DNA of 25,715 nt from Acaryochloridaceae cyanobacterium VAR_48_metabat_390 (lineage in GTDB: Bacteria; Cyanobacteriota; Cyanobacteriia; Thermosynechococcales; Thermosynechococcaceae): positions 1-25,715 of the forward strand of contig JANPLU010000110.1 in NCBI GenBank assembly GCA_031422435.1, written 5' to 3'. This document shows, piece by piece, positions 1-25,715 of the stretch. The notes under the pieces are model-generated. The model worked only from the letters and a program-made list of their open reading frames with translations. It was not told where the DNA came from and made no database searches. Position 1 is the stretch's first letter. The number at the start of each line of letters is the position of its first letter. A program made the translations under genes and the position numbers.

Positions 1-133
1 GAATTATTGTGTCAATGCGCGATGCTGAACCGGATGATTCAATTGGGTAAGCCTGTCAGTGTTCCAGTTGCTGCTTAATCCAACCTCAATAAAGGGGGAT
101 TTCTGTCCTAGATTCCACTTATGCAACAACGCC
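1..133 (+). mobile_element. Right end of an IS5-family (IS903 group) insertion sequence
   Basis: Frame +1 at 1-78 reads ELLCQCAMLNRMIQLGKPVSVPVAA*, like the IS903-type transposase C-terminus (ALNKMTKAGMPESVRIA). The terminal sequence read inward from 133 is GGCGTTGTTGCATAA, resembling the IS903 IR GGCTTTGTTGAATAA. Confidence 0.8.
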
Positions 134-951
134 GTTTCAAGAGCCACTTTCTCTAGACCACCATTGCTCTCTATCTTTTCTGTTGTTGCCTGCTGGAGCA
201 GAGAAATGTGGGAAAACTGTCGGAACCGTTCTGGCTCGGATAGCCAGTATTCTACGCCTGCATCGAAAGGATTAGCAGATACTGCGACAATGGATAAGGC
301 TTTTGTTTCATCAAAATTTAGTCCTATTAGGTCTTGCAGGCGCGAGAGAACATTCTGCTTTTTGATGTCGAAGTTCTGCTGATAATCTTCTTCGTCTGCA
401 ACGTCGGCTACTTCGTCAAAACGGCTGAGAACAAACACCGTACGCGGTAACAGATTCAGTTCACGGAAAAGCCAGTTCAGTTCGCTTGTGTGACTTTCCT
501 TGAGTGGATTAGTGGAGTTCATCACGTACAGGACGAGATGTGCCTCGCTAACGTATTTTCGGGTAATATCCTTGTACTTTTCTTGCTCTCCAGTGCTGTC
601 GCTGAACTTTTCTTTGTAGCCGAACAACCCTGGCGTGTCGATCAGGGTTAAGTCATCAGAAACGTCATATACAGCCACGGTATTGGAAGATTCTTGATGG
701 TTGATGTTCATATCAGACTGAAGCTTGCCCAACCACGCCGCCGCAATCGATGTCTTTCCTTCCGAAAAGCCACCGATTAGGGTTATTTTCAGTTTTGAAT
801 TGCCTGCAATAGACTGTTGCAACTTTTCTTTAAGGGCAGGATCGATGGACACACCTGCCGCTTCTCCTTGTGCTAGAAACTCCAATAGCTTGTCTTGAAT
901 GATACGAGCTTTGGTTTGCTGTTCTTTAAATGTATCCAGGCTCGCATTCAT
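134..951 (-). pseudogene. leoA: LeoA/HP0731-like dynamin-like GTPase, 3'-truncated by IS insertion
   Basis: G1 GGFSEGKT, G3 DTPG, G4-like SRFD, and SANPF motif. Native sequence stops at codon 273 (…VALET), where the IS IR begins; the remaining ~42 aa of the ORF to position 4 are IS read-through. Confidence 0.75.
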
Positions 952-3107
952 TACAAATTTCCTTCTGTTATAATTTTTTGAGAAATCAATTCCAGCCTTT
1001 TAACAAAATCATTTAGTAATGACGTAATCTTTTGCGCCTGTATTGCTGGTAATTGAAATTTGTTCTTGATGTTGTCTAGATTACTGTGTAATTTATGCTT
1101 TTTTTCCTTTAGTTGTGAAGTACAAGTGGATTCAATAGAGCAAAATATTTTTTCGATATTTTTATCAGCCGCTTTTCGTTGTTGAGCTTTTTTGTAATCA
1201 CTATCTAAGAATGCCCATACTGCTTTCCTGAAAGACAGGATAATGCTAAATGCACCGAAGGCTAAAGCCCAACCACCACTTACAAAAATTAAGGCTATTG
1301 AGCCAAGGACAGTCGTAATCAATCCAGAAACGCTGATACCATTGTCTATCTTTATTTCAAGTTCAAAATCTGTATCGCTTATCGTCAAGGCATCATCCAG
1401 AAATTCTTGCACATGCTCTTGGAATTGTGCAGCAATATCTTTGACTTCCTCTTGGAAGGTTTCAAACTGCTTCTTAATTTCCTCAGATAATTCTTTTTCA
1501 ATCCCTTTAAATTCATATTGAATGCAGTATTCTAGACAATGCTTAAAGTTATTATTACTTATATCTTGATCAATCTTCTCATATATATATCTTCGGGATT
1601 TTTTACGCTTTTTATCAAACACTGATACGACAGTGGACTCGATATTACTGTCCAATTCATCAACTGCACTTTCTAGCTGCAAGATTGAATCGTGCGCCTG
1701 ATTTTCAAGTTTATCAAGCAGTGGATTGAAGGTAATTTTGTTCAAGTCTTGAATCTTGTCTGCTAGTTGACGAATTACGTCATTAGCTTTGTTAAAGTTA
1801 GATTTTCGTATTCTCATCTTGACATTCTCCAGCATCTCTCCCAGCTTATGGGTAAGCGAAATGAAACCAGTTTTATGCAGAATGTCGTCTGACTTCATGA
1901 CCGCAAGAAACTTACTACGATCCTTACCTTTGATATTGCCAGGGATAAAATGATCGGTAGATGCAATAAAAGCAGGGTATGCGCTCACTATCAAAGAGTC
2001 TGCATAATGCTTGCCCAATTGCTGTTTCATCTCCGCATCCAGCACTTTGAGGCTATCTAATTCACCTTTATTGACCAATTGTGGTACACGCAACTGTTCT
2101 GCGGATTTGATGCTTTTGTTAAAGATTGTCCATACCTGAGTTTGCGCACCCAGATGCTCCTTGATCTTTTCAAGAGTTCCCTTTTCCCCAGGTTTGTTAT
2201 CACCTTTTTGTGGCGGGTCGGCCTTGCGGGTCACGTAGAATACGGCATGAGCCTTCTGTAGAGCCTGCATAATGGGTTCACGTACAAGTTCTTCCTTTCC
2301 CTCAATTCCAGGAACGTCAAGCAGCACGAATTTATGGTTGTTATTTACAGTGAACTCATAACTGCTTGTTTTACGGGTAAAATCTGATTGTCCATCACCA
2401 ATTATGTCGCCGTCCTGACATCCTTTCAGCTCGTTTATTGCATTGACAATATCAGCAATCTCATTATTTTTTGAATTAATTTCAGAAATGATCTGCAACT
2501 TTTGCTGTTCATGCTCTTTAAAAGTTTTCTCATTTTTGATAATTAATTTATTTAACTCTGTTTTGACAGCAATTAATTCAGCTTTAGCTTGCATCCAGAA
2601 TGGTAGGAACTTTATTTCTGTAGTCAGTTGGTCAACTTGTAAAGTAAGTTGCTGTTCTTGTGCATTTTGCTTTTTTTGTAATACGTTAAATTGTGAAATA
2701 AATATCTGTAGCTTTTCTTCATATCGAGCAATCTCTTGGCTTTTTTGATTCCACTTATCGGCGGCATTTTCATCAATGTTGAATTTTTCGCGCATCTCAC
2801 GGAACTTCCGTCGTGCTTCTTGTTTCTTGTTTTCACCCATCAGAATGCGTAGCGTTTCGATGATAGTGGACTTTCCTGCATTGGTTTCACCATAAAAGGC
2901 CACTGTAAACACATCCCATTCGGCATTTTTGTCAAGCTCTCGCAAGATGGCATCGGTTTGTTTTTTCAATGGCGTGACATTATTTCGGGCTGTTTCAATG
3001 GCTTTGGACAGTTCTACATTTTCCGACTGTGCCTCCAGAGCATTTAGAACTGCATTGGTTTCCCTGAGCACTTCTTTGTATATGCTTTTCAGTGATGTCA
3101 AATCCAT
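951..3107 (-). CDS. LeoBC-like dynamin-like GTPase (Eleos/Dynamins defence partner)
   Basis: 718 aa. G1 GETNAGKS, a long coiled-coil insertion, DGDIIGDGQSDFT, G3 DVPG, NKS G4-like motif, and a hydrophobic hairpin near the C-terminus. Stop overlaps the leoA start (TAATG). Confidence 0.75.
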   Translation of the reverse strand: MDLTSLKSIYKEVLRETNAVLNALEAQSENVELSKAIETARNNVTPLKKQTDAILRELDKNAEWDVFTVAFYGETNAGKSTIIETLRILMGENKKQEARRKFREMREKFNIDENAADKWNQKSQEIARYEEKLQIFISQFNVLQKKQNAQEQQLTLQVDQLTTEIKFLPFWMQAKAELIAVKTELNKLIIKNEKTFKEHEQQKLQIISEINSKNNEIADIVNAINELKGCQDGDIIGDGQSDFTRKTSSYEFTVNNNHKFVLLDVPGIEGKEELVREPIMQALQKAHAVFYVTRKADPPQKGDNKPGEKGTLEKIKEHLGAQTQVWTIFNKSIKSAEQLRVPQLVNKGELDSLKVLDAEMKQQLGKHYADSLIVSAYPAFIASTDHFIPGNIKGKDRSKFLAVMKSDDILHKTGFISLTHKLGEMLENVKMRIRKSNFNKANDVIRQLADKIQDLNKITFNPLLDKLENQAHDSILQLESAVDELDSNIESTVVSVFDKKRKKSRRYIYEKIDQDISNNNFKHCLEYCIQYEFKGIEKELSEEIKKQFETFQEEVKDIAAQFQEHVQEFLDDALTISDTDFELEIKIDNGISVSGLITTVLGSIALIFVSGGWALAFGAFSIILSFRKAVWAFLDSDYKKAQQRKAADKNIEKIFCSIESTCTSQLKEKKHKLHSNLDNIKNKFQLPAIQAQKITSLLNDFVKRLELISQKIITEGNL

Positions 3108-3388: not shown

Positions 3389-6019
3389 ATGACTTTTGTT
3401 GGACTTCATATTCACAGCGACTACAGCATGTTAGACGGTGCCAGTCAGCTTAATGACCTGGTTACACGCGCTGCGGAATTGGGGATGCCTGCGATCGCCC
3501 TCACTGACCACGGCGTGATGTACGGGGCAGTGGGGCTACTCAAAGCCTGTAAAGGCAAAGACATTAAGCCCATCATCGGCAACGAAATGTACGTCATCAA
3601 TGGGGATATTACGCTTCAGGAGCGTCGTCCCCGCTATCACCAAGTGGTGCTGGCAAAAAATACTCAGGGCTATCGCAACTTGGTCAAACTGACCACTATT
3701 TCCAGTCTTCAGGGCGTACAGGGTAAAGGCATTTTCTCGCGCCCCTGCATCAACAAAGATTTGCTAGAGCAGTACCACGAGGGCTTAATTGTCACCAGCG
3801 CCTGCCTCGGCGGTGAAGTGCCCCAAGCCATCATGAAGGGCAGGCTAGACGTTGCCCGTCGCATTGCCCGCTGGTACAAAGATCTTTTTGGCGAAGACTA
3901 CTATATTGAAATTCAAGATCACGGTTCCCAAGAAGACCGCGTGGTCAATGTCGAGATTATCCGCATTGCCCGTGAACTCGATATCAAAATTATTGCCACC
4001 AACGACTCTCACTACATCTCTTGCTACGACGTAGAAGCCCATGACGCGCTGCTCTGCATCCAAACGGGAAAACTCATCACCGAAGATAAACGCCTGCGCT
4101 ACAGCGGCACGGAGTACCTCAAATCTGCTGAAGAGATGGCGCTGCTGTTTCGCGATCACCTGACGGATGACGTGATAGAAGAGGCGATCGCCACCACTCT
4201 AGAAGTCGCTGACAAAATCGAAACCTACGATATCTTTCGAGATCCTCAAAGCCCTTCCTACCAAGTGCCCCAAGGGTATACCCCCGAAACCTACATGGAG
4301 GAAATCACCTGGCTGGGGCTGCTCGATCGCCTTAAGGTAAAATCTCGCGCAGACATTAACGCGGAGTATAAAGAGCGGCTTGAATACGAGCTAAACATGC
4401 TTGAACAGATGGGCTACTCCACTTATTTTTTAGTCGTGTGGGACTACATCAAATACGCCCGTGACAACGGCATTGCCGTGGGGCCAGGGCGGGGTTCTGC
4501 GGCGGGTTCTTTGGTGGCCTATGCGCTAGAAATCACCAATATTGACCCTGTACATCACGGCCTGCTGTTTGAGCGCTTCCTCAACCCAGAGCGTAAATCA
4601 ATGCCAGATATTGATACTGATTTCTGCATCGATCAGCGCGAAAAGATTATTGAGTACGTTACCCAAAAATATGGCGATGACCACGTTGCCCAAATTATCA
4701 CCTTTAACCGCCTCACCTCCAAAGCTGTCCTCAAAGACGTGGCGCGGGTGCTGGATATCCCCTATGGCGAATCGGATCGCATGGCAAAGCTGATTCCCGT
4801 CTCGCGGGGTAAGCCAGCCAAACTCAAGGTCATGATTTCAGACCAGACCCCCGCCCCAGAATTTAAGGAAAAATACGACACCGACCCTAGAGTGCAGCGC
4901 TGGATAGACATGGCAATCCGCATTGAAGGCACTAACAAAACCTTCGGCGTTCACGCAGCAGGCGTGGTGATTGCGGCAGAACCGATTGACCAGGTGGTGC
5001 CCCTCCAGCGCAACAACGACGGCTCGGTTATTACCCAGTACTACATGGAAGACCTAGAGTCTCTGGGCTTACTGAAGATGGACTTCTTGGGGCTAAAGAA
5101 CCTCACCATGATTCAAAAAGCTGCCGAGCTAATTCAGCAAAATCGTCATGAGACGATTGATGTAGACCAGCTACCAATGGACGATGCCAAAACCTACCAG
5201 CTCCTTGCCAAAGGCGAACTAGAAGGCATCTTTCAGCTAGAGTCTTCGGGGATGCGGCAGGTGGTGCGCGACCTCAAACCCTCCAACCTCGAAGATATTT
5301 CATCGATTTTGGCACTCTATCGTCCTGGGCCATTAGATGCAGGACTAATTCCCAAGTTTATTAACCGTAAGCATGGGCGCGAACAAATTGAGTATCAGCA
5401 CAAAATCTTAGAGCCGATTCTCAACGAAACCTACGGCATTATGGTTTACCAAGAGCAGATCATGAAAATCGCTCAGGAGATGGCGGGGTACTCCCTTGGG
5501 CAGGCGGATTTACTGCGCCGCGCTATGGGGAAAAAGAAAGTCTCTGAGATGCAGAAACACAGTGAACTGTTTGTTGAAGGCGCTGCTAAAAATGGCGTAA
5601 CAAAGCAGGTTGCCACAGAACTCTTTGACCAAATGGTCATGTTTGCAGAATATTGCCTTGCTGCCGATACTGAGGTGCTGACGGTTGAGCATGGCTGGGT
5701 CACCATTGGGCAACTGGTGAATCAAGAATTAGAGGCACAGGTTTATACGGTGCATCCTCAAGGCTATGTTTATACGCAGCCGATTTGGCAGTGGCATCAT
5801 CGCGGCTATCAAGCGGTGTTTGAGTATGAACTTGAAAATGGCGTGGTCATTCAGGCTACGCCAGACCATCAGTTTATGACAGCAGATGGGCAAATGTTGC
5901 CCATTGATCAGATTTTTGCCGATGGCTTGATGCTACAGCAAGTGGATCTGCCCCAACTCTACGTAAAAAATCAGCCGCAGAAAAAGCTATGTCTTTGCAG
6001 CAGAATTAGTTCGCGCTAA
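3389..6019 (+). CDS. dnaE: DNA polymerase III alpha subunit, N-terminal part, with N-half of split intein
   Basis: PHP domain ([18 protein letters not shown]), [12 protein letters not shown], catalytic PDIDTD, and LLRRAMGKK; then [17 protein letters not shown] intein block A. Confidence 0.97.
5654..6016 (+). other. DnaE split intein N-fragment (121 aa)
   Basis: Starts at Cys756 after the extein …FAEY; contains block [10 protein letters not shown] (TxxH). The ORF ends without an intein C-half or the polymerase C-terminus. Confidence 0.93.
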
Positions 6020-10377: not shown

Positions 10378-10782
10378 TTAGAGTTGTCTCCAATTTTCGG
10401 TTTGTAGTTCTGGCACTCGATCAAATTCTCGTTGATTGGCTGTGACCATGATGAGCTGATGTTGAAGTGCTGTAGCAGCAATCAATACATCGTAAGCGCC
10501 AATGGGCTGGCCTTGAGTTTTGAGAATGGCACGAATTTCAGCAGCTTTTTCGGATTCTGGGTTAGCAAAAGGAAGGATTGTAACTGAACTGAGAAAGCTG
10601 GTCATCATCGGTTCGATTTTCTGAGCGCGTTGAGGGTTGAGTTGTAAGCCGTAACGTAGCTCCATCAAGGTGATGACAGAGATAGTGATATCGACGGGCG
10701 AGGTTTGCTTAATTCGAGCTTGAGTGCCCGGTTCTCCTTTGATGAAGTCGCTGATGACGCAGGTATCGAGTAAATAACGCAT
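10378..10782 (-). CDS. vapC: PIN-domain VapC toxin
   Basis: YLLDTCVIS, E42-type ELRYG, G.PIGAYDVLIAATAL, VTAN.REF.RV motifs. Confidence 0.9.
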   Translation of the reverse strand: MRYLLDTCVISDFIKGEPGTQARIKQTSPVDITISVITLMELRYGLQLNPQRAQKIEPMMTSFLSSVTILPFANPESEKAAEIRAILKTQGQPIGAYDVLIAATALQHQLIMVTANQREFDRVPELQTENWRQL

Positions 10783-11024
10783 TAGAACAACTCCGGTTCA
10801 CGGGGTGGAAGAAGTTCATCGCGGTAAGATTCAAATGCAGGGAAGTCTGGTTCACCATTGAATGCAAGGATGATGCCTGGCCAACCAGCAACATTAGATT
10901 GTTTTACTTGGGTGAGTTGATGCAAAGATTGAAGGATGAGAGTTTCTATAGAAATATTTAGTTGATTTGCTTGTTGGATAAGATTTTGTTCGAGGTCTTG
11001 GGGTAGGTTGATTGTGATTTTCAT
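10782..11024 (-). CDS. Probable VapB-type antitoxin
   Basis: 80 aa with an RHH-like N-terminus (MKITINLPQDLE); stop overlaps the vapC start (TAATG). Confidence 0.75.
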   Translation of the reverse strand: MKITINLPQDLEQNLIQQANQLNISIETLILQSLHQLTQVKQSNVAGWPGIILAFNGEPDFPAFESYRDELLPPREPELF

Positions 11025-15618: not shown

Positions 15619-16593
15619 ATGTCGAGACATTTAGAAAGACTTCTTCAGCTAGATACGCTGATCCGCTCAAGCCACCGTCATACAGTAGAGAGCCTAGCAA
15701 AGGCTGTAGAAAGAAGCGATCGCACGGTAAGAAACGACTTGGCATTTCTGCGCGATCGCCTGGGTGCGCCACTGCTCTACAAAAAGACTAAGGGGTTTCA
15801 CTATACTGACCCAGACTGGCGGTTGCCGAGCATTACGCTGAGTCAAGGGGAACTGTTTGCCCTGACGTTAGGGGCGCGAATGTTAGAAAACTACGCGGGG
15901 TCTGCCTATGCGGAGGAGTTGCGGGGGGCGATCGCCCGTTTAGCCGAACGCCTGCCTGAGCAAACTTGGGTAGATCTCCAGCAGTTGGCAAATGAAAACG
16001 TGTTGTTTCGAGTGGGGGCGCAGCTCGATCTAGATTCTGATGTGTGGCAGGTACTGGAGACAGCTTGCCAACTGAAGCAGCGGGTGTTGATGCGCTACTA
16101 CACGGCGGGGCGAAATGAGGAGACGGAACGCAAGCTTGACCCCTATCTGCTGCACTTTACGCGGAACAATCCTTATGTAACGGGCTATTGTCATCGGCGG
16201 CAGGCTATTTTGTGGTTTCGGGTGGATCGGGTGCGCTCTATTCAGCTCTTAAAGGAGCGCTTTGAGATTGACCCATCGTTTGATCGGCAAAAACATTTTG
16301 AGGATGTATTTCAGCATGAGGTGGGGAAGCAGGCTTATGAGGTGGCGATTTGGTTTGATGGGCAGACGGCTCCCTACATTCGAGAGCGGCGCTGGCATCC
16401 AACTCAGGTGATTGAGGAAGGGGAAGATGGAGGGTTGATTTTGCGGATGACGGTACGGGGGTTGAATGAGCTGAAGCGTTGGGTTCTATTTTATGGGAAG
16501 GGGGCGATCGCCCTGGAGCCGCCAGAGCTGGTGCAGATGATTGAAGATGAGATATCGACGATGTACCGCCACTATGAGGAGGGACGACCATGA
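15619..16593 (+). CDS. HTH-WYL-WCX transcriptional regulator (CRISPR-associated)
   Basis: N-terminal wHTH (SDRTVRNDL), WYL domain (Y…R.LDPY.L…YVTGYC..R…FRVDRV), and WCX (RWVLFYG…LEPPEL); located upstream of the cas operon. Confidence 0.9.
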   Translation: MSRHLERLLQLDTLIRSSHRHTVESLAKAVERSDRTVRNDLAFLRDRLGAPLLYKKTKGFHYTDPDWRLPSITLSQGELFALTLGARMLENYAGSAYAEELRGAIARLAERLPEQTWVDLQQLANENVLFRVGAQLDLDSDVWQVLETACQLKQRVLMRYYTAGRNEETERKLDPYLLHFTRNNPYVTGYCHRRQAILWFRVDRVRSIQLLKERFEIDPSFDRQKHFEDVFQHEVGKQAYEVAIWFDGQTAPYIRERRWHPTQVIEEGEDGGLILRMTVRGLNELKRWVLFYGKGAIALEPPELVQMIEDEISTMYRHYEEGRP

Positions 16594-17201
16594 TTCAAGC
16601 GTTACAGAGACTAATGACGTTTGAGGAGTTTCTGGATTGGTACCCAGAAGATGGGAACTGCTATGAGCTGATGGATGGGGAGGTGATATCTGTGCGACCT
16701 AGGGGCGAACACGAAGAGGTGATTAGCTTGCTGACCCGCAAGCTGGATCGGGAGGTGGAGCGACTGGATCTGCCGTGGTTTATTCCTAAAACCTGCTGTG
16801 TGAAGCCTGAGGGAAATCTGGATGGCTATGTGCCGGATTTGATTGTGCTAGATCGCGTTCAATTACAGTCGGAGCCGCTCTGGAAGAAGGCTTCTACGAT
16901 TGTGCAGGGTGCTTCTGCTCGGCTGGTGGTGGAGGTGGCGAGTACGAATTGGCAGGATGACTATGCCAAGAAGCTAGAAGACTATGAGCTGTTGGGTATA
17001 CCTGAGTATTGGATTGTGGATTATCGGGCGTTGGGGGGACGGCGATATATTGGGTCGCCTAAGGTGCCGACGGTGAGTGTTTATGTGTTGGTGGATGAGG
17101 TGTATCAGGTGCGGCAGTTTAGGGAGGGGGAGGCAATCGCGTCTGCTATTTTCCCTGAGCTAAGGCTGACGGCGGCAGAGATTTTGACGGTGGGGGAGTA
17201 G
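16590..17201 (+). CDS. Uma2-family PD-(D/E)XK endonuclease
   Basis: MTFEEFL, YELMDG, PDLIV, VVEVAS, DY..K..DY..LGIPEYWIVD motifs; ATGA overlap with the WYL gene. Confidence 0.92.
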   Translation: MIQALQRLMTFEEFLDWYPEDGNCYELMDGEVISVRPRGEHEEVISLLTRKLDREVERLDLPWFIPKTCCVKPEGNLDGYVPDLIVLDRVQLQSEPLWKKASTIVQGASARLVVEVASTNWQDDYAKKLEDYELLGIPEYWIVDYRALGGRRYIGSPKVPTVSVYVLVDEVYQVRQFREGEAIASAIFPELRLTAAEILTVGE

Positions 17202-17214
17202 TGGGGTGAAGTGG

Positions 17215-17298
17215 GCGATCACGCTGGGGCCATCGGAGTTGGTGGAGACGGTGCGGGAGGAGGTAAAAGTGATGGATCAAGCCTATCGGTTTAGTTGA
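17215..17298 (+). pseudogene. Orphan duplicate of the WYL regulator C-terminus
   Basis: Reads AITLGPSELVETVREEVKVMDQAYRFS*, homologous to WYL AIALEPPELVQMIEDEISTMYRHY; begins at a degenerate HIP1 site (GCGATCAC). Confidence 0.7.
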
Positions 17299-17339: not shown

Positions 17340-17345
17340 TATAAT
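17340..17345 (+). promoter_or_regulatory. -10 box for the mini-CRISPR
   Basis: Perfect TATAAT 6 nt upstream of repeat 1; no clear -35 at canonical spacing. Confidence 0.55.
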
Positions 17346-17351
17346 TGCATT

Positions 17352-17447
17352 GTGTTCGTCTCAGATGCCTTTGGCGTTGAGCACAGAAGTGCGACAGAAC
17401 CTGGCGGACTTTTGCATTCGCGCTCCCACCACTGATGCCGCAAGGCG
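17352..17447 (+). CRISPR. Single-spacer mini-array (degenerate Myxan/I-B repeats; crRNA-like regulatory RNA)
   Basis: Repeat 1 GTGTTCGTCTCAGATGCCTTTGGCGTTGAGCAC (17352-17384); 35-nt spacer 17385-17419; repeat 2 GCGCTCCCACCACTGATGCCGCAAGGCG (17420-17447), lacking the TTGAGCAC tail. The shared GATGCC..GGCG core and GGCGTTGAGCAC end are typical of repeats at Myxan-type I-B loci. Confidence 0.85.
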
Positions 17448-17488
17448 CTTTTCAAAATCCAACAAATAGGGTTATCCGAAACGATTTT

Positions 17489-17557
17489 ATGAGAAGAGCA
17501 ACTTAACCAGGGGGACTAGGGGGGTTGACAAACGAGATATCCTAAGTCAAGATATCT
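17489..17557 (+). promoter_or_regulatory. Putative ORF75/cas promoter with overlapping crRNA target site
   Basis: ATG PAM at 17489-17491, protospacer-like 17492-17526, TTGACA at 17525-17530, a weak -10 CAAGAT 17 nt later (17548-17553), and inverted repeat AGATATC-N9-GATATCT (17535-17557). Confidence 0.65.
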
Positions 17558-17584: not shown

Positions 17585-17812
17585 ATGATTTCTCCTAGTT
17601 TTGTCCTCTGCTGTTCATCCTGTGGAAAACAACACTCGATCTATATCAATCAGAAACCGTTGGATGAGCTTACAGATGAGAATCAACAACTTAAGGAAGA
17701 GAAACTTTACCTCAACCAAGTGTGTGAAAGCTTAAGTGAAAGACTTGTTGCGGCGGAGTCAATGGCTGCTTGGGACGATATAGACGGTAATGCCATAGCA
17801 AATTTGCTTTAG
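17585..17812 (+). CDS. Hypothetical 75-aa protein (CxxC + coiled coil)
   Basis: ATG preceded by GAAGG; CCSSCGKQH then heptad-like LDELTDENQQLKEEKLYLNQVCESLSERL; lies between the promoter and cas6. Confidence 0.55.
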   Translation: MISPSFVLCCSSCGKQHSIYINQKPLDELTDENQQLKEEKLYLNQVCESLSERLVAAESMAAWDDIDGNAIANLL

Positions 17813-17892
17813 CAATAAAAAGTGAATTTCTTTAAGCAAACCCAAGCAGTTGATGCTGTAAGACGAAGGGACTTGAATAAAATTTACTGATT

Positions 17893-18558
17893 TTGAGGAA
17901 TATAGTCGTGTTAGTGATCGAACAGTTAAATCAGAAAGATAATGTTCTTGAGGCTCCCTATGTTGATCTTGATTTCAACATTATGGGAGAAACGCTACCT
18001 GCGGATCATGGGTATGGGTTGTATAGTGCGATCGCCCATCTTTGCCCTCAAGTCCACGAACAAGAAGGGTTGAGCATTCTAACGATCACAGGAATTCCTG
18101 ATAAAAAAGGCAAGATTTTTTTGACAGAGCGATCGCATTTACGCATTCGGTTGCCCTATGACTGTATGCCAATGGTCTATCACCTTGCAGGAAAACAGCT
18201 AACTATTGGGTCGCACTCAATTCGGTTGGGGATTCCACAGATTTTTATGTTACGTCCTGGGTCGAGGTTACGCGCTCGGATTGTGACGATTAAAAACCAT
18301 CAGGAGCCTGAGAGTTTTTTGGAAGCAGTAAGGTTGCAATTAGCTGCTTTGGGCGTTGTGGGGGAGGCAATTATACCTTTGGATGTGGAGGGTAGGCCTG
18401 CCCGAAAAACTATCAAAATCAAAACTTACTCTGTCGTTGGTTTTGGATTGGAGGTATCGGATTTAAGTGAGGAGGATTCGATCAAGTTACAGATTTCTGG
18501 ATTGGGTGGTAAGCACCGCATGGGGTGTGGTGTGTTTGTCCCGATGAAGGAGCTTTAA
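17893..18558 (+). CDS. cas6: Cas6 (Myxan-type I-B, Cmx6)
   Basis: LPADHGY.LYSAI, ARIVTIK, and the C-terminal G-rich loop GLGGKHRMGCGVF. Start uncertain (TTG 17893 or a downstream GTG). Confidence 0.9.
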   Translation: MRNIVVLVIEQLNQKDNVLEAPYVDLDFNIMGETLPADHGYGLYSAIAHLCPQVHEQEGLSILTITGIPDKKGKIFLTERSHLRIRLPYDCMPMVYHLAGKQLTIGSHSIRLGIPQIFMLRPGSRLRARIVTIKNHQEPESFLEAVRLQLAALGVVGEAIIPLDVEGRPARKTIKIKTYSVVGFGLEVSDLSEEDSIKLQISGLGGKHRMGCGVFVPMKEL

Positions 18559-18561
18559 GGA

Positions 18562-20922
18562 ATGACAAACTTGCCAGAACAACTATTAGCGAAAAGTAAA
18601 CTTAAAGATCGTCCACCAGTCACCTTACAAAAGCATCTGTTAGATACAGAAAAATCTGCCTGCCAAATTTTCCGTTTAAATGGACGTTGGGGAAAAAATT
18701 GGTGTCGTTTTTTCAAATTGATAACTGAGGAGGAACAACAGAAATTTATTTTGAATTTGCAAGTTTCGGCATTGTTTCATGACATTGGCAAGGCAAATGA
18801 AGAATTTTATAAAGCGGTCACAGGAAAATGCGACCAGACTTTTCGGCACGAACATATCAGCGCTTTGATACTGCATTTACCTCAAGTACGTTCTTGGTTA
18901 AATAGAGCGCCTTTAGATGTTGAAGTCATTACAGCAGCCGTTTTATCTCATCATTTGAAGGCTTCTGAGAAAGGCGATCGCCAATGGGCAAGTCCACGCA
19001 AGGGGACTCGTGGTAAAGCAGTTCAGCTTTATTTACTCCATGATGAAGTTAAAAGTATTTTGCTAAAAATTGCTAAGATTGCAGTTCTTGATGTACCACC
19101 TGAACTAAATTTTTCTACGTTCTCTCAAGATGCGATGTGGGGCAAAGCATGGAAGGAGGGAATTGATACTGCAAAGAAACTGATGCGTGATATTACTGAA
19201 GAAAGAAGAAGTCTGCTTTTAGCAGTTAAAGCAGGGCTGATTGTTTCTGATGCAGCGGCTTCAGGGCTAGTGAGAGAGAATAAAAATATTGATGAGTGGA
19301 TTGAAGATGTTGTGCATGGTGATGCGATCGCTAGCGCAGACATTACTGAAAACATTTTGGCTAAACGTGCGGCTCAAATCTTTGCAATCACTCAAAAGCC
19401 TTTTGAATTGCATAACTTTCAAAAGTTAGCGGCGCAGCAAGGATCGCGGGTTTTGCTTTTAGCGGCTTGTGGTGCAGGCAAAACTCTAGCAGCCTGGAAA
19501 TGGGCTGAAGAGCAGGTTAAGCATTGCAAGGTTGGGAAAGTTATTTTTCTTTATCCCACACGCGGTACAGCTATGGAGGGGTTTAAAGATTATGTGAGTT
19601 GGGCACCTGAAGCTGATGCAGCATTGGTGACAGGAACAGCACGCTATGAACTGGAGGCAATGGCAGATAATCCACCTGATTCGATGCAGGAAAAAGACTT
19701 TACAACTGATGATCGCCTATTCTCTCTAGGTTTTTGGTCGCGGCGATATTTTAGTGCGACGGTCGATCAATTTTTAGGCTTTATGGAACATAGCTATGGT
19801 GGCATCTGCCTTCTACCTGTTTTGGCTGATAGCGTCGTGATTATCGATGAGATTCATAGTTTCGATTTGAAGATGTTTGATAGTTTGATTGCTTTCCTAA
19901 AATATTTTGATATCCCAGTTCTTTGCATGACTGCGACTTTGCCTCCGTCTCGGCGCAAACAGCTTGTAGAGGTGGGGTTACAGGTTTATCCGACGGAAAG
20001 CGATTACCAAAGCCTAAAAGATCTAGAAATCAAAGAGAATCACCCACGCTATCAAATCCAACCTGTAGAGGTTTTTAATGAAGCCTTTGCAAAAGCTATA
20101 GCTGCTTATAGGCAAGGTAAAAGGATTCTATGGGTTGTAAATACAGTTGATCGCTGTTTGGCAATTTCTAAGCGGCTTGCAAATGAACTGAAATTAGAAG
20201 TGTTGACATATCACAGCCGATTTCGATTGATGGATCGCCAGAAAGTTCATGCTGACACTGTCAAGGCATTTGCTTTTCAAAAAGATGGCGATCGTAAACC
20301 CGCAATCGCAGTAACGACCCAAGTTTGTGAAATGTCTCTAGATTTAGACGCCGATGTTTTGATTACCGAATTTGCGCCAATTTCTTCGCTAGTTCAACGT
20401 TTTGGAAGAGCTAACCGCCATCCAGACTCTAGAACAGATAGAACTTTTAAAGCCAGACTTCATGTCTATAAACCACCGAAGGATTTGCCCTATGATCGCA
20501 AAGAGCTTGAAACCGCCCAAAGATTTATTGACGAGTTAGGCATCGGTGACATTAGCCAAAATCGTTTAGCGGTCGCTTTAGAAAAGTTTGCCAATGAGGA
20601 GAGAAAAGCAGATGGAATGCCATCATTTTTTACGAGTGGTTATTTTGCCACAATGGGCAGTTTTCGCGATACCGATGAGTACGCGCTTCCTTGCGTTCTT
20701 GATCGCGATCTAGAAAAAGTTAAGGCACTTGTGGAATCTAGACCTAAGAAGCCATACGACGGATTCATTATCAATGTCCCAGTCCCACGCAAGGGAATAC
20801 ATTCTCTTGATGACAAGCCGAGTTGGTTGCCTAAATATTTGGGTGTGGCTCAGTGGGAAGGTAACTACGATGAGAAATCGGGATTCTCAACAAAGAATTT
20901 AGAGGAGGTCAATCTTGGTTAA
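18562..20922 (+). CDS. cas3: Cas3 HD nuclease-helicase
   Basis: HD domain (HDIGK, RHEH, LSHH, SDAAAS), Walker A CGAGKT, DEIH, TAT, YHSRF, TQVCEMSLD and QRFGRANR; appears intact. Confidence 0.95.
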   Translation: MTNLPEQLLAKSKLKDRPPVTLQKHLLDTEKSACQIFRLNGRWGKNWCRFFKLITEEEQQKFILNLQVSALFHDIGKANEEFYKAVTGKCDQTFRHEHISALILHLPQVRSWLNRAPLDVEVITAAVLSHHLKASEKGDRQWASPRKGTRGKAVQLYLLHDEVKSILLKIAKIAVLDVPPELNFSTFSQDAMWGKAWKEGIDTAKKLMRDITEERRSLLLAVKAGLIVSDAAASGLVRENKNIDEWIEDVVHGDAIASADITENILAKRAAQIFAITQKPFELHNFQKLAAQQGSRVLLLAACGAGKTLAAWKWAEEQVKHCKVGKVIFLYPTRGTAMEGFKDYVSWAPEADAALVTGTARYELEAMADNPPDSMQEKDFTTDDRLFSLGFWSRRYFSATVDQFLGFMEHSYGGICLLPVLADSVVIIDEIHSFDLKMFDSLIAFLKYFDIPVLCMTATLPPSRRKQLVEVGLQVYPTESDYQSLKDLEIKENHPRYQIQPVEVFNEAFAKAIAAYRQGKRILWVVNTVDRCLAISKRLANELKLEVLTYHSRFRLMDRQKVHADTVKAFAFQKDGDRKPAIAVTTQVCEMSLDLDADVLITEFAPISSLVQRFGRANRHPDSRTDRTFKARLHVYKPPKDLPYDRKELETAQRFIDELGIGDISQNRLAVALEKFANEERKADGMPSFFTSGYFATMGSFRDTDEYALPCVLDRDLEKVKALVESRPKKPYDGFIINVPVPRKGIHSLDDKPSWLPKYLGVAQWEGNYDEKSGFSTKNLEEVNLG

Positions 20923-22567
20923 GAGAAATTCTAAACAGATGTCTCTTCTATCAGAGAATAAGGTATTGACACTTGACTATACGTTAGCTGAGTTACCATC
21001 TTCACAGCATCGATCTGGTTTGGCTGGATTGGTTTTGATGGTGAGATGGTTGCATCGTTTTGATGCATGGAAACAGGATAGTTCTGCTATTTGCGAGATC
21101 GAGAATTTAAGTGATCGCTCAGTCACCTTACGAGTTAACCAGTTAGGTTTACAAACTCTATTCAATGAGGTTTATCGAGCCTACTTTGAAGAGCGTAACT
21201 ACGATCAACCCAAAACGAAAGGGAAAGGCGAAAAAAAGACTATAGTTCCTTGGAAAGGATATCCTGATCCAGGAAGTATAAAGGATGAAAAAACTGGGAA
21301 GAGCAAAAAAGTCTATCCCTATGATGATGTTATCCCCAAGGGTGCATTTATTGCTGATATCGATCCTGATGGAGATCGCGGTCGATGGATTAAACTGTGG
21401 CGAGATTTGCTTTGGAGCATTTTGCGTGGTGTACCAGCTACGCGATCGCCCTATGAGTCAAGAGCGAATGGTAACTATACTGATGATGCCGATAAGGTAT
21501 GGAAAGAGCTGTTACAACCTGCTGAATTTACAGTCGATCTGCCCAGTACATATTATATTGGAGCGCAAGCCAGCAATCCTGAAAATGTGCCTTTTAAGGA
21601 TCGCGCAAGGTATCAATTTCTTTTACATTTTTGGGTGTTTGCTGCTTCTGTTTATGTACCAGCCGTCATCAATAATGAAGGAAAGCGCGATTTTGTGGGT
21701 TATGCAATAGCTATCCCTGACATCGCACAGCTAGGACTCTTCTGTGATGAATTTCTAGGACTATTGAAAGAACGTGGAAATGAAGTCACAGGCTATCGTC
21801 CCCGTGATGCTGTCGTCGATTTAGCAGTGGAAGGGGCGCTAGACCTGATGGCTAGATTGCGTGATCGCGTCTCTAGATTAGAAACTAGCATTGGCGATCT
21901 GGTCATGAGTGTAGATGTGATTCACACCGAAAAGCAAGGCAATAATGTTCGAATTCTCGGCGCAGCTCGTCTCGATCCACCCGAAAGAGAATGGATTGAT
22001 AAGTATCGCGAAATTCGAGAACACTTGTGGAACGCTACATTTCGCCACCAAAGATTACTCAATCTAGTGAGTAATAAAGCTTGGTATATGGGATTTGATT
22101 CGCTACTATGTACCATTGCCTATAAACAAACGATGGAAAATGACTATTTCTGTCATGATGTTCGCGAATCATTCAAATATGAGGTAGAAAATATGACCGA
22201 TGAAACAGAACAAAGTTCTAATGTTGAAGTTGCCGAATACTCTTGCGAAAAACTTGTTTTACGCTTGGTCAAGTCCTATGTCTTGAGTAAATTAGATGGT
22301 AAATATCAACTCAATTGGAAAGAGGTAGAAGGATCGCCGAAAGAGAAGGAGTATCGCGAGAAGAAGGCTAAAATTGCTAAGTCTGCTTTTCTAGATGTTC
22401 GCAGCCGCACTGAAAAGTCTGACTTTATCAATTACTTTGCTTCCACGATTTGCTCTGTATCACAGCGAATGAACGAGGATAGTTTTGAGAAATTAACTCG
22501 CGATCTCTATGAAGACACAGACAAAGTGCGTACTTTGACGATGCTTGCCCTCTCTGCTAACAGCTAA
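20915..22567 (+). CDS. cas8: Cas8 large subunit (Myxan-type Cas8a1/Cmx1)
   Basis: LAELPSSQHRSGLAGL, WIKLWRD.LW.ILRGVPATR, FLLHFW and TMLALSANS motifs; positioned between cas3 and cas7. Confidence 0.85.
   Translation: MVKRNSKQMSLLSENKVLTLDYTLAELPSSQHRSGLAGLVLMVRWLHRFDAWKQDSSAICEIENLSDRSVTLRVNQLGLQTLFNEVYRAYFEERNYDQPKTKGKGEKKTIVPWKGYPDPGSIKDEKTGKSKKVYPYDDVIPKGAFIADIDPDGDRGRWIKLWRDLLWSILRGVPATRSPYESRANGNYTDDADKVWKELLQPAEFTVDLPSTYYIGAQASNPENVPFKDRARYQFLLHFWVFAASVYVPAVINNEGKRDFVGYAIAIPDIAQLGLFCDEFLGLLKERGNEVTGYRPRDAVVDLAVEGALDLMARLRDRVSRLETSIGDLVMSVDVIHTEKQGNNVRILGAARLDPPEREWIDKYREIREHLWNATFRHQRLLNLVSNKAWYMGFDSLLCTIAYKQTMENDYFCHDVRESFKYEVENMTDETEQSSNVEVAEYSCEKLVLRLVKSYVLSKLDGKYQLNWKEVEGSPKEKEYREKKAKIAKSAFLDVRSRTEKSDFINYFASTICSVSQRMNEDSFEKLTRDLYEDTDKVRTLTMLALSANS
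22193..22567 (+). CDS. cas11: Cas11 small subunit from internal in-frame start in cas8
   Basis: SD-like GAGGT (22181-22185) precedes an in-frame ATG (cas8 codon 427, MTDETEQ…), giving a 124-aa helical C-terminal product. Confidence 0.7.
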   Translation: MTDETEQSSNVEVAEYSCEKLVLRLVKSYVLSKLDGKYQLNWKEVEGSPKEKEYREKKAKIAKSAFLDVRSRTEKSDFINYFASTICSVSQRMNEDSFEKLTRDLYEDTDKVRTLTMLALSANS

Positions 22568-22589: not shown

Positions 22590-23471
22590 ATGACTAACAA
22601 GAATTTATTTGCAACCGTTCTCACTTATGCTGCACCAAGCTCTAACTATCGTGGTGAAAGCGAAGAGAATCGAACCGTTCTCCAGAAAATTGCCAAAGAC
22701 AAGAAAGAATATACGGTGATCAGCCCAGAATCGATGCGAAATGCTTTACGCGAAAGGTTGATCGCCGCAGGTGTGCCATCTAACAGAAAGCGTTTGCACG
22801 ATCAAGATCAACTTGCCGTTGAGTTCCAAGAGTTTCCAAATGCTGCCAAGTATGCCGATGACTTTTTGTTTGGCTTCATGGTTGCCGATAATGACGCGAT
22901 TAAAAAGAACAAAGGAATGCCGCCTAAGCGCGATAGTATTCTGCGGATGAATATTGCATTAGCTTTAAATCCCTACAGATTTGATGCGACTTTTCATCAG
23001 TCTCCCCAAAATGCGGGAGTTAGTCCTTGGAAAAATTCGGTTAACTCTGCACTACTACATCGTGAGATTTCCCACACAGCTTATCAATATCCTTTTGCAC
23101 TCGCTTACAATGACTGCAAGAGTCAGCCTGATTGGGTGAAAGCTTTGCTCAAAGCAATTAGCGAGCTTTCGGATGTAGCAGGTGGTCATGCACGTAGCTA
23201 TTACGAAATGGCTCCCAAAAGCATTGTTGCGCGGCTTACTCCTTGCCTCGTGGCAGGGTTTAATACTTACGGATTTGATGAAAATGGTAATTTCCCAGAA
23301 TTGTCGCGATTGAAACCTGACGATTTGCCTGCTGACGAGTTTTGGATGGGTGGCGAGATTGTTCGTAATATGAAATCAGAGGAACGCAAACGCTTCCAAG
23401 ATGCTGGCGCTAAGCTATACGAAAATCCGCAAAAGTTGCTTGCTGACCTTGCAAACGACTTTTTAGATTAG
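22590..23471 (+). CDS. cas7: Cas7 (DevR/Cst2-like)
   Basis: SNYRGESEENRTVLQKI, ISPESMRNALRE, DDFLFGFM, SALLHRE and VAGGHAR motifs. Confidence 0.9.
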   Translation: MTNKNLFATVLTYAAPSSNYRGESEENRTVLQKIAKDKKEYTVISPESMRNALRERLIAAGVPSNRKRLHDQDQLAVEFQEFPNAAKYADDFLFGFMVADNDAIKKNKGMPPKRDSILRMNIALALNPYRFDATFHQSPQNAGVSPWKNSVNSALLHREISHTAYQYPFALAYNDCKSQPDWVKALLKAISELSDVAGGHARSYYEMAPKSIVARLTPCLVAGFNTYGFDENGNFPELSRLKPDDLPADEFWMGGEIVRNMKSEERKRFQDAGAKLYENPQKLLADLANDFLD

Positions 23472-23480
23472 GAGAGCGCC

Positions 23481-24194
23481 ATGAATTGTATGTGGTTGCG
23501 TATTCGTGCGCCCTTTGCTGCCTATCGTGGTTTTCAGGCTGGCGTGTATCGTTCGACGATGCCGATTATGCCGCCATCTGCTGCTTTGGGTTTGGTTCTA
23601 AACCTTGCTGGAATTGAAATGCGGACTGGGCTGGATAAACCAACAACCCAGATTCGTGAAGATATTCCCCATTTGCAGCTAGCGATCGGTGCAGTTGATG
23701 GTTCGGAGAGTGAGGTGTGTTCTCTTTATCAGCAACTTCACAGTTATCCAGTTGGCAATTCTGGCAAAGAGACCTTAAAACCTCTCACTAAAGGTGCAAA
23801 ATTCTGGATTGTTCCCGTGCGAAGAGAGTTACTGGTTGGGCTAGATATGATTATCGGTATTCAGGAATTTGAAGGCTTATTTGATCGCATCCGGCAGGGT
23901 TTGCGAGGTGAGCTAAATGATTGTCGCTATGGTATGCCCTTTGCCGGAGATAATAATTTCCTCTTTGATCGCATTGATATTATCGACAGTCCGCCGTTAA
24001 CGCACTGGTATGAAAAGATGGAAATTGATTCAGCACCCCGCAAACGATCGCAACGATTGACCGTCGGCATTAATCGCCTTGATAACAGCAAAACCACGAG
24101 CTATCTATTTGCCCCGATCGCTTCACCATCTATCGAGCCACCAACCCTAGCTTGGACGTGGTCTCCCAAAGAACCTCAGTCAATCTCTGCATAG
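23481..24194 (+). CDS. cas5: Cas5 (DevS/Cmx5-like)
   Basis: LRIRAPFAAYR, PPSAALGLVLNLAGIE, YQQLHSYPVG, PVRRELL and RYGMPFAGDNNF motifs. Confidence 0.9.
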   Translation: MNCMWLRIRAPFAAYRGFQAGVYRSTMPIMPPSAALGLVLNLAGIEMRTGLDKPTTQIREDIPHLQLAIGAVDGSESEVCSLYQQLHSYPVGNSGKETLKPLTKGAKFWIVPVRRELLVGLDMIIGIQEFEGLFDRIRQGLRGELNDCRYGMPFAGDNNFLFDRIDIIDSPPLTHWYEKMEIDSAPRKRSQRLTVGINRLDNSKTTSYLFAPIASPSIEPPTLAWTWSPKEPQSISA

Positions 24195-24301
24195 ATTCTC
24201 ATGCTTTGAAGACATCAATGGTGTGCGATTGCTCCACTCAAAGACAATCGCCTCAACCCATTTCGCTCTAAATTTTAGTGATAATCCTCACCTTAATCCT
24301 T

Positions 24302-24616
24302 ATGAATCTTCAAAATATAGACCTCCCCCTTACCAAAATTCAAAGCACCTGTAAACGCTGGAAAATCCAAGAACTCGCTCTCTTTGGCTCTGTCCTTCGA
24401 GATGATTTTCGAGCTGATAGCGATATTGACCTGCTCGTCACATTTGAGCCTGACGCTAAACGAGGGCTTACCGAAACCTTGCAAATTCAGGATGAATTTC
24501 AAACACTTTTTGGACGCAAAGTTGACCTGATCGTCAAAAGCGCCATCGAACGAAGTGATAACTGGCTACGCAAGAAAAATATTCTAGAATCAGCCCAAAA
24601 TATTTATTTCGCGTGA
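24302..24616 (+). CDS. Minimal nucleotidyltransferase (MNT) antitoxin
   Basis: LFGSVLRDDFRADSDIDLLV (GS-x10-DxD) and LFGRKVDL; ATG at 24302. Confidence 0.9.
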   Translation: MNLQNIDLPLTKIQSTCKRWKIQELALFGSVLRDDFRADSDIDLLVTFEPDAKRGLTETLQIQDEFQTLFGRKVDLIVKSAIERSDNWLRKKNILESAQNIYFA

Positions 24617-24932
24617 CCTAGAATCTCTCATTGATATTCAAAATGCAGCACAACGGATCAAGCGATATGTTGATGGCATCAGCCGCTCAGCGTTAGAAGA
24701 AAATGACGAAAAACTCTCAGCCATTCTTTATCAAATTACTATCATTGGCGAAGCCACAAAGCGGATTTCTTCTGAATTCCGCGCTCAGCATCCTGAAATA
24801 CCTTGGCGAGAAATGGCTGGAATGCGCGATGTTATTATGCATGAGTACGATCAGCTTGATTTTGAGGTGATATGGGATGTCGTCAGTCACAAATTAGATG
24901 AACTACTCAGTCTTAGCGAGCATCTATCTTAA
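24606..24932 (+). CDS. HEPN (DUF86/HepT-like) RNase toxin with non-canonical ATT start or lost start
   Basis: Not in the ORF track. Frame reads (I)SRDLESLIDI…IIGEATKRIS.EFR.QHPEIPWREMAGMRDVIMHEYDQLDFEVIWDV…*, 108 aa, with intact R-x4-H-x-Y motif. Confidence 0.8.
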   Translation: MSRDLESLIDIQNAAQRIKRYVDGISRSALEENDEKLSAILYQITIIGEATKRISSEFRAQHPEIPWREMAGMRDVIMHEYDQLDFEVIWDVVSHKLDELLSLSEHLS

Positions 24933-25061
24933 AGTATGTGCGATCGCCCCACCCTTACCTCACCGAAGGGCGATCGTCTTCTCTTCAGCTCTAAAAGCTA
25001 CACTAAAGCATAACCTCCTGAGCAAGGAGGTTATGCAAGCGCCAACTCAGGAGTCAACACT

Positions 25062-25280
25062 ATGATGTCGCCTCAATTGCTCATTACTCTCGAAAAACTT
25101 CCTGAACCCCTTCAGAAAGAGGTTTTGCACTATGCTGAATTTCTAGCAAATAGATATAGTCAAGACCAACCTGAACCTAGTTTGCCGACAAAACGTCGTC
25201 AAGCAGGCATAATGAAAGGCTTGATTTTGATGTCAGATGATTTTGACGCACCGCTTGAAGACTTGAAAGATTACATGTAA
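25062..25280 (+). CDS. DUF2281-type antitoxin
   Basis: LPEPLQKEVLHYAEFL…R.AG..KG.I.MSDDFDAPLED; directly upstream of the PIN gene. Confidence 0.85.
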   Translation: MMSPQLLITLEKLPEPLQKEVLHYAEFLANRYSQDQPEPSLPTKRRQAGIMKGLILMSDDFDAPLEDLKDYM

Positions 25281-25287
25281 ATAGTCA

Positions 25288-25575
25288 ATGTTGCTAGACA
25301 CTCATGCTCTCCTCTGGTTTCTAGATAATGATGATCGTCTCCCCACTTATACAAAAGCACAGATCGAAACCACTGAAACTGTACTTGTCAGTATTGCTTC
25401 CCTTTGGGAAATTGCCATCAAGGCAAATATAGGGAAACTGACTCTGAAAACAACGTTCATCGCCATTCAGCAAAGCCTGATTACTCTGGGCATTAATATC
25501 ATTCCTATCACATTTATGGATACTGAAACCTATATTTCACTGCCGCTCCATCATCGTGACCCCTTTGATAGAATC
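25288..25575 (+). pseudogene. vapC: PIN/VapC toxin truncated by IS insertion
   Basis: LLDTHALLW, VSIASLWEIAIK and LP.HHRDPFDR; the sequence switches to the IS end at 25576, losing the expected …IAQA…T.D C-terminus. Confidence 0.8.
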
Positions 25576-25715
25576 GGGAGCATCTCACTTTTGCGATAAG
25601 TATTTATACTCAAGCATTTAAGACATTAAAAACGGGAGACTTGAGGCACTGTACTTGGAGTGAAGCGTATGACTCCCGAAGAAAAACAGACCATAAAAGT
25701 CCACTTGGATGCCGT
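25576..25715 (+). mobile_element. Left end of an ISKra4-like insertion sequence with transposase start
   Basis: Terminal GGGAGCATCTCACTTTTGC. ORF from 25669 reads MTPEEKQTIKVHLDA… with a GGAG RBS, resembling cyanobacterial ISKra4-family transposase N-termini; runs off the window. Confidence 0.65.

Follow-up and report, generated by a model that had tools for sequence, protein, structure and literature searches.

A mini-CRISPR with an ATG-flanked cis target as a putative CreR/CreA-type regulator in a cyanobacterial Myxan type I-B locus

Introduction

Self-control of CRISPR effectors by degenerate guides has already been published in other microbes, and the cyanobacterial Myxan case described here would be an extension of that principle. 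In the CreR units of Liu et al. (10.1101/2023.03.10.532045), one of two degenerate repeats (R1) keeps the handle and the other (R2) its 5′ part, and the spacer partially matches a site with the subtype PAM beside the cas promoter; both traits recur in our locus, where the promoter is a predicted one. CreR was tested in haloarchaeal I-B, Salmonella I-E, and V-A systems, whereas ours belongs to the Myxan/Cmx8 type, uses an ATG PAM, and has a protein-coding gene as the first one downstream of the predicted promoter. The main text of Liu et al. does not contain the string “cyanobact”; Figures S6–S7 of the same work may list cyanobacteria.

Mini-arrays upstream of cas6 were reported for ~19% of bacterial I-B loci (10.1101/2023.03.03.530964; PMC10120712). 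According to the main text of Shmakov et al. (PMC10120712), these crlRNA mini-arrays target the cas6 promoter region with a PAM and have swappable cargo between the mini-array and the cas genes, as found here. The cargo clades shown in that text are from I-D and consist of known toxin–antitoxin or regulator genes, in contrast to the I-B Myxan cargo of this study. The main text contains no cyanobacterial or Myxan term; its locus tables may list such loci.

The antitoxin RNA creA shows the same pattern of repeat decay as our mini-array (PMC8501985, accessible text). The layout of CreTA and CrePA is likewise shared: creA is followed by the target with the promoter and, ~70–120 nt behind the target, by a small ORF, all inside the cas locus (PMC8501985; 10.1101/2024.01.05.574328). 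As described in the accessible text, the I-F toxin CreP has a KilAC domain, and CreT toxins are RNAs (10.1101/2024.01.05.574328; PMC8501985); the 75-aa protein of our locus was unrelated to them by the searches run.

The closest effector described is the Myxan Cascade of Synechocystis sp. PCC 6714 (PMC11096372), with Cmx8/Cas8b, an AYG PAM, and GNS/GVP loops as in our locus, and with a 71-nt crRNA, the length predicted below for our guide. The accessible text of that paper covers interference and editing, and we found no regulatory guide in it. Our literature searches returned no paper on a guide of this kind from the Myxan I-B systems of cyanobacteria; supplements may list it.

We analysed contig JANPLU010000110.1 of Acaryochloridaceae cyanobacterium VAR_48_metabat_390 (assembly GCA_031422435.1), positions 1–25,715, hereafter the window (25,715 nt). 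A first-pass annotation had read a one-spacer mini-CRISPR in it as a guide by which Cascade represses its own promoter. Features are listed in Table 1.

Results

Cas operon and surrounding locus

The CRISPR-Cas system of the window is type I-B Myxan: cmx6, cas3, cmx8, cas7/DevR, and cmx5 all scored above the NCBIfam cut-offs. The GNS and GVP loops of Cas5 and Cas8 were assigned to reading of the AYG PAM in the accessible text of PMC11096372. The closest relative of cas6 (84% identity) was found in Altericista sp. CCNU0014 (L001), and all named related loci were cyanobacterial. Upstream, the Uma2 gene is followed by a second, decayed copy of the WYL 3′ end, which suggests that the WYL gene took up Uma2 at its end.

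The right end of the window runs into an insertion sequence which splits a PIN toxin gene; the split region comprises window positions 25288–25715 and the end of contig C15. Among eight right ends of the insertion sequence examined, one, on contig C15, carried the 9-bp target duplication, so the locus continues onto C15 (cas4/1, cas2, leader, repeat). This contig holds the only cas1, a cas2, and the only canonical repeat of the genome. Its array consists of this single repeat, one spacer, and a decayed repeat; no multi-spacer array is present in the assembly, where collapse is possible. A degenerate repeat located 69 nt upstream of the canonical one (C15:22957–23100) resembles the long-spacer class described below, and the 69-nt segment between them gave no convincing ATG target (best 12/15).

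Several other genes accompany the locus. An MNT antitoxin-like gene (24278–24940) is followed by a probable HEPN/DUF86-type partner, assigned by position, and further PIN modules lie at 10378–11024 and 25062–25599. Two adjacent dynamin-like GTPase genes occupy 4–3107. The N-terminal part of DNA polymerase III alpha (876 aa, 3389–6019, domains by Pfam) is consistent with dnaE being split in cyanobacteria.

Table 1. Features of the mini-array, its target, and the cas locus in the window.
Feature	Position	Strand	Evidence
HTH-WYL-WCX transcription factor gene	15619–16593	+	Pfam WYL, WCX, HTH_11
Uma2 family gene	16590–17201	+	PF05685
Decayed copy of WYL 3′ end	~17203–17295	+	translation resembles WYL C-terminus
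Predicted −10 box of mini-array promoter	17340–17345	+	TATAAT by sequence; putative function
Degenerate repeat 1	17350–17384	+	22/36 identical to canonical repeat; 6-bp hairpin
8-nt 5′ handle within repeat 1	17377–17384	+	8/8 vs. canonical repeat
35-nt spacer, putatively regulatory	17385–17419	+	sequence and genome-wide match
Degenerate repeat 2	17420–17455	+	24/36 identical to canonical repeat (contig C15:22957–22992)
ATG PAM	17489–17491	+	sequence; same in run X3; 22/23 homologous targets after ATG
Partial cis target	17492–17517	+	20/26 identical to spacer; conserved core ~positions 1–17
Predicted promoter (TTGACA, 17 nt, CAAGAT)	17525–17553	+	sequence; both hexamers kept in X3
75-aa cargo ORF (CxxC, then long helix)	17585–17812	+	four full-length homologues
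Decayed third repeat in cas6 leader, hairpin broken	17838–17873	+	20/36 to canonical repeat; no fold
cas6/cmx6	17908–18558	+	TIGR02807; likely GTG start behind GAGGA site; ORF open from 17893
cas3	18562–20922	+	TIGR01587/01596; HD nuclease and helicase motifs; uninterrupted
cas8b/cmx8	20915–22567	+	TIGR04413; GVP PAM loop at residue 172
Probable internal cas11 start in cas8b/cmx8	22193	+	
cas7/DevR	22590–23471	+	TIGR02585
cas5/cmx5	23481–24194	+	TIGR02586; GNS PAM loop
Left end of insertion sequence, splits PIN toxin gene	25576–25715	+	9-bp target duplication

Anatomy of the mini-array

The coordinates given in the first-pass annotation for the spacer, the target, the 20/26 identity, the mismatches, the ATG, the TATAAT at 17340, and the TTGACA at 17525 were all confirmed, and some of its descriptions had to be amended. 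The first repeat was said to keep the 8-nt handle, which it does, together with its hairpin (6 bp, 3-nt loop). The second repeat, described as a hairpin only, has that hairpin but retains more: it is identical to the canonical repeat at 14/14 of positions 15–28, at 21/28 before the predicted cut, and at 3/8 after it. The T-run noted behind it is real (four T), but the terminator scan found no terminator after repeat 2.

The two divergent repeats, with the handle kept in the first and the part before the cut kept in the second, fit the pattern of CreR and CreA. A canonical immune array would look different: here the repeats are 22/36 and 24/36 identical to the canonical one, and the searches described below gave no mobile-element protospacer for the spacer. 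Cas6 cut sites were placed by the 8-nt handle rule at the hairpin bases. In repeat 2 the predicted cut falls after 17447, which would release a 71-nt RNA (17377–17447).

Rfam gave 0 matches within the window, and the mini-array was absent from the 20 largest families of the repeat finder. The guide folds on itself at −19.6 kcal/mol (z −0.69). Self-folding of the spacer was considered as a family trait and dropped as weak (mean z ~−1.1 vs. −0.2 for 62 ordinary spacers).

Cis target match

The spacer and the target mismatch at positions 6, 9, 12, 13, 18, and 21, and the match is gone from position 27; a 35-nt footprint from the target start extends to 17526. When every sixth position is ignored, the target matches at 19/22 pairing positions with a seed of 7/7; among the mismatches outside the flipped-out positions are those at 9 and 13. 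This is the best match of the 3.7-Mb genome: the runner-up among 109,103 ATG-preceded sites reached 15, and in a PAM-free scan of 7.4 million positions only the spacer itself outscored the cis site. None of 2,000 shuffled spacers exceeded 17 in the intergenic region in a PAM-free search. The match is therefore beyond chance.

The ATG had been called the reported PAM of cyanobacterial type I-B Cascade; the ATG stands, but the preference published for Synechocystis sp. PCC 6714 type I-B Cascade is AYG and not strictly ATG (PMC11096372, accessible text). A perfect match of the spacer to a phage or plasmid, which would have spoken for an immune origin, was not found: IMG/VR gave 0 protospacer hits, and 3 phage and 18 plasmid records matched the spacer, none of them covering 80% of it. 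The single viral copy of the handle and seed (L199) was without hairpin or second repeat and was judged a chance hit.

Predicted promoter and transcription of the operon

TTGACA begins 7 nt behind the target end. The best −10 element (CAAGAT, 17548–17553) matches at 3/6 positions, and the promoter scan therefore called none. A related contig from run X3, ~90% identical, differs at five other positions of 17525–17553 and has both hexamers unchanged; it also bears one tolerated change inside the TATAAT, at 17344. A perfect 7-bp inverted repeat (17535–17557) overlaps the promoter spacer and the −10 element. The target had been placed next to the cas-operon promoter. The predicted promoter is there, but the first gene behind it is the 75-aa ORF, not cas6, which starts 380 nt downstream. 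The circuit may therefore be CreA-like, acting on the cargo, as well as CreR-like, acting on cas. A scan of the interval between cargo and cas6 found neither terminator nor promoter. Transcripts that begin at the WYL promoter and read through may likewise supply cas6.

Survey of homologous loci

We gathered 182 cmx6 loci, of which 161 were distinct. The commonest layout (69/161) was a WYL gene abutting cas6 (within 200 nt) without a cassette. Strict mini-arrays were present in 29 loci and ordinary arrays upstream in five; 21 were too short to judge, and the other 37 offered enough space yet gave no strict hit. Scanned less strictly, these 37 contributed six more loci in which a score of 13/15 or better coincided with ATG, a further one at 12/15 with ATG, and a single hit lacking ATG. 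No ATG-targeting mini-array lay upstream of WYL in the 60 WYL-cas6 loci scanned (0/60). Given these counts, the circuit is optional.

After removal of six near-duplicate spacers, the 29 mini-array loci yielded 23 distinct spacers in 20 spacer families. Local matches were scored on 15 positions with no PAM required and the flipped-out positions left unscored. The best local match followed ATG for 22/23 distinct spacers and TTG for the remaining one; by family the count was 19/20. In non-cognate control pairs ATG preceded the best match in 19/506, five of which involved kin spacers. Terminal spacers of ordinary arrays were rejected as cas6 regulators: 0/73 ordinary spacers scored 12/15 or higher in the leaders that follow their arrays, which are shorter. 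Homologous targets occur on either strand, which fits a guide that targets DNA and not RNA. In L117 and L173 the mini-array lies on the strand opposite to cas6, with ATG targets still present.

Covariation of spacer and target

The earlier suggestion to check spacer–target covariation in homologous loci was borne out. On spanning trees of kin spacers we counted 8 compensatory changes, 2 positions changed on both sides and unpaired, 2 changes confined to the spacer, and 4 confined to the target. Because kin loci are only partly independent, kinship inflates these counts somewhat; the inflation is too small to explain the ATG and covariation counts. The X3 contig carries C>T at 17401 (spacer position 17) together with C>T at 17508 (target position 17) and keeps the PAM, the seed, and both hexamers. 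The array has 6 changes in 108 nt, compared to 13 in the 41-nt linker. The match at positions 24–25 is lost in X3. The distal part of the match is not conserved, and the conserved duplex, first described as 26 positions, comprises about the first 17 nt.

Flipped-out positions and long spacers

Mismatches concentrate at position 6 (14/23), at position 12 (16/23), and from 18 on, a pattern in line with the pairing in segments of five bases seen in the structure of the Myxan Cascade (PMC11096372, accessible text). The target has A at position 6 in 16/20 families and at position 12 in 15/20, against a frequency of 0.31 elsewhere. The spacer has A there in only 6 and 7 of the 20 families, respectively. 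Because positions 6 and 12 were left out of the score, this bias cannot be circular. Cascade may prefer a target-strand T where bases are flipped out. Something similar has reportedly been described for a type I-E Cascade. Our literature search on such a preference returned no paper.

Nine of the 23 guides have spacers of 57–66 nt (L027, L049, L051, L054, L060, L078, L115, L160, L168), with ATG targets present all the same. The 3′ half of these spacers is leader-like by eye.

Third repeats in the cas6 leader

A repeat between the guide and cas6 was strong in 7/29 loci (L076, L143, L150, L155, L160, L168, L181) and weak in five including the window, where its score was reached by 245 of the 7.4 million genome sites. 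Single repeats before cas6 were also seen in L164, L171, L174, and L175. It is conceivable that Cas6 cleaves its own mRNA leader at the third repeat; no paper on such cutting was found in the literature search.

Cargo genes behind the target

The four homologues of the 75-aa ORF are 56–93% identical over full length and have the CxxC and the long helix in common. The protein had no significant Pfam, PHROG, or PDB match, and no toxin family was matched in the searches run. Its structure predicted from the single sequence was of low confidence (pLDDT 54.6). Viral contigs held no relative of cmx6 or of the cargo, and phage and plasmid records gave no cargo match.

A small ORF lay between target and cas6 in 21/29 mini-array loci and was missing from 8/29 (ORF lists read by eye). 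Twelve of the 21 were helical, eight fell into two HTH-like groups, and one was of another kind. Searches with cargo proteins led to four new places. In L117 and L190 the cargo stands behind cas3, each with its own mini-array and ATG target; in L027 one array has two ATG targets, at the cargo promoter and at the cas6 promoter; in L013 an HTH-type cargo stands behind cas3, and no mini-array was seen. Hence cargo often travels together with the guide, a behaviour that Shmakov et al. report for I-D (PMC10120712). The eight loci without cargo and the double target of L027 indicate that the cas genes are a target in the mini-array family.

Atlas hits below 0.9 were treated as leads only, and the high score of the window cargo in profile A2 was circular and thus discounted. 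A family of 61–81-aa helical proteins with a conserved RVDP(Y/F)S..SLAD tail (L040, L127, L137, L051, L054, L117, L190; P0003–P0014, P0017–P0019) occurs beside Myxan mini-arrays wherever the context is visible and is commoner than the 75-aa family. Membership of the 75-aa protein in it was rejected (BLASTP E 0.40, motif absent).

Discussion

Sequence and comparison establish the anatomy of the mini-array, its unique cis match, the PAM, and the covariation of spacer and target. The unit has the traits by which CreR and CreA are recognised in sequence, namely repeat decay, a seed-anchored cis match flanked by a PAM, and conservation in homologues; it most probably belongs to this described class, as a regulator of Myxan type I-B. 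The spacers and their ATG-flanked targets change together, and the searches of phage and plasmid sequences turned up no protospacer; both results support a regulatory role. The CreR/CreA-like circuit proposed at the outset is thus favoured by the homologous loci and the close relative.

We consider it very probable that the mini-array encodes a regulatory guide and that partial binding of Cascade without cutting damps the cargo and cas6-cas3-cas8-cas7-cas5. Weighing against this are the weak −10 element, the possible supply of cas6 from the WYL promoter, the optional nature of the circuit, the match lost at 24–25 in X3, and the mismatches at 9 and 13 and the self-folding of the guide. Beyond the sequence match, each step is what we would expect. 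The guide would be transcribed from the TATAAT promoter (17340–17352), cut by Cas6 in both repeats into a 71-nt crRNA-like RNA, and loaded into Cascade. The complex would bind at the ATG and open a partial R-loop of ~17–23 bp, extending toward and covering the −35 box. Cas3 recruitment requires a full R-loop in this subtype (PMC11096372, accessible text), so the R-loop would be too short to recruit Cas3 and no cutting would occur. Occlusion of the −35 box would exert negative feedback on the co-transcribed cargo and cas genes. Competition from canonical crRNAs, or inactivation of Cascade by anti-CRISPRs, may lift the repression; both were shown for CreR elsewhere, as the accessible text describes (10.1101/2023.03.10.532045).

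The same guide may serve as a CreA-like antitoxin, with the 75-aa protein as a CreP-like toxin freed upon loss or inhibition of Cascade. Such a function would add to the repressor role and is compatible with it; we hold it to be possible but rather doubtful. The small, swappable genes that fill the slot in 21/29 loci, from several unrelated families, speak for a CrePA-like toxin–antitoxin reading, as does the precedent of CrePA in I-F (10.1101/2024.01.05.574328, accessible text). Three of the four new-place cargo homologues adjoin a mini-array with an ATG target (L027, L117, L190), and the effector genes are intact despite the single canonical repeat and the missing multi-spacer array. On the other hand, the canonical array may have collapsed in the assembly, the searches run matched no toxin family, and eight loci are without cargo in the slot. 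The cargo in L013 stands where no mini-array was seen. A toxin co-transcribed with cas6 also cannot be fully shut off.

Repression might be confined to the cargo, with cas6 and the following genes transcribed from the WYL promoter or from a promoter in 17813–17907. The prevalence of WYL-cas6 operons without a cassette agrees with this, and the cargo could be uncoupled from cas6 by the third repeat that separates them. Nevertheless, the scan of this interval was negative and cargo-less homologues target the cas6 leader directly, and we regard such a restriction as improbable. Decay of an immune array, with a phage-derived spacer or an old eroded self-targeting one and no present function, would account for the degenerate repeats, and C15 likewise holds an array that seems to have shrunk. 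It is very unlikely in view of the protospacer searches, of the compensatory changes and the intact seeds and PAMs in 20 spacer families, and of the conservation of the array relative to the linker. We give equally little credence to control by the WYL protein through the inverted repeat with an incidental spacer match: the palindrome is perfect, overlaps the promoter, and has a WYL gene upstream, but in X3 its left arm is altered at 17536 and 17541, changes that have no counterpart in the right arm, so that a conserved operator is not supported, and such control cannot explain the covariation.

In a broader, speculative picture, to which we assign a low probability, cyanobacterial Myxan I-B systems would carry mobile guide-plus-promoter cassettes that repress the cas operon together with interchangeable small proteins. 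These would be new toxins that enforce retention of Cascade and sense anti-CRISPRs. Some cassettes would use a Cas6-cleavable repeat in the cas6 leader as a second brake, and operators would have evolved A at positions 6 and 12 for tighter unpaired binding.

As for the regulatory guide itself, it would, with direct evidence from covariation, extend RNA-guided autoregulation by Cascade to the Myxan/Cmx8 branch of I-B, which is used for genome editing and is related to I-B transposon systems. About 20 natural guide–operator pairs expose what appear to be the rules of binding without cutting: an intact seed, ~17 paired bases, and A at positions 6 and 12. Several unstudied small-protein families also become candidates for CRISPR-repressed toxins.
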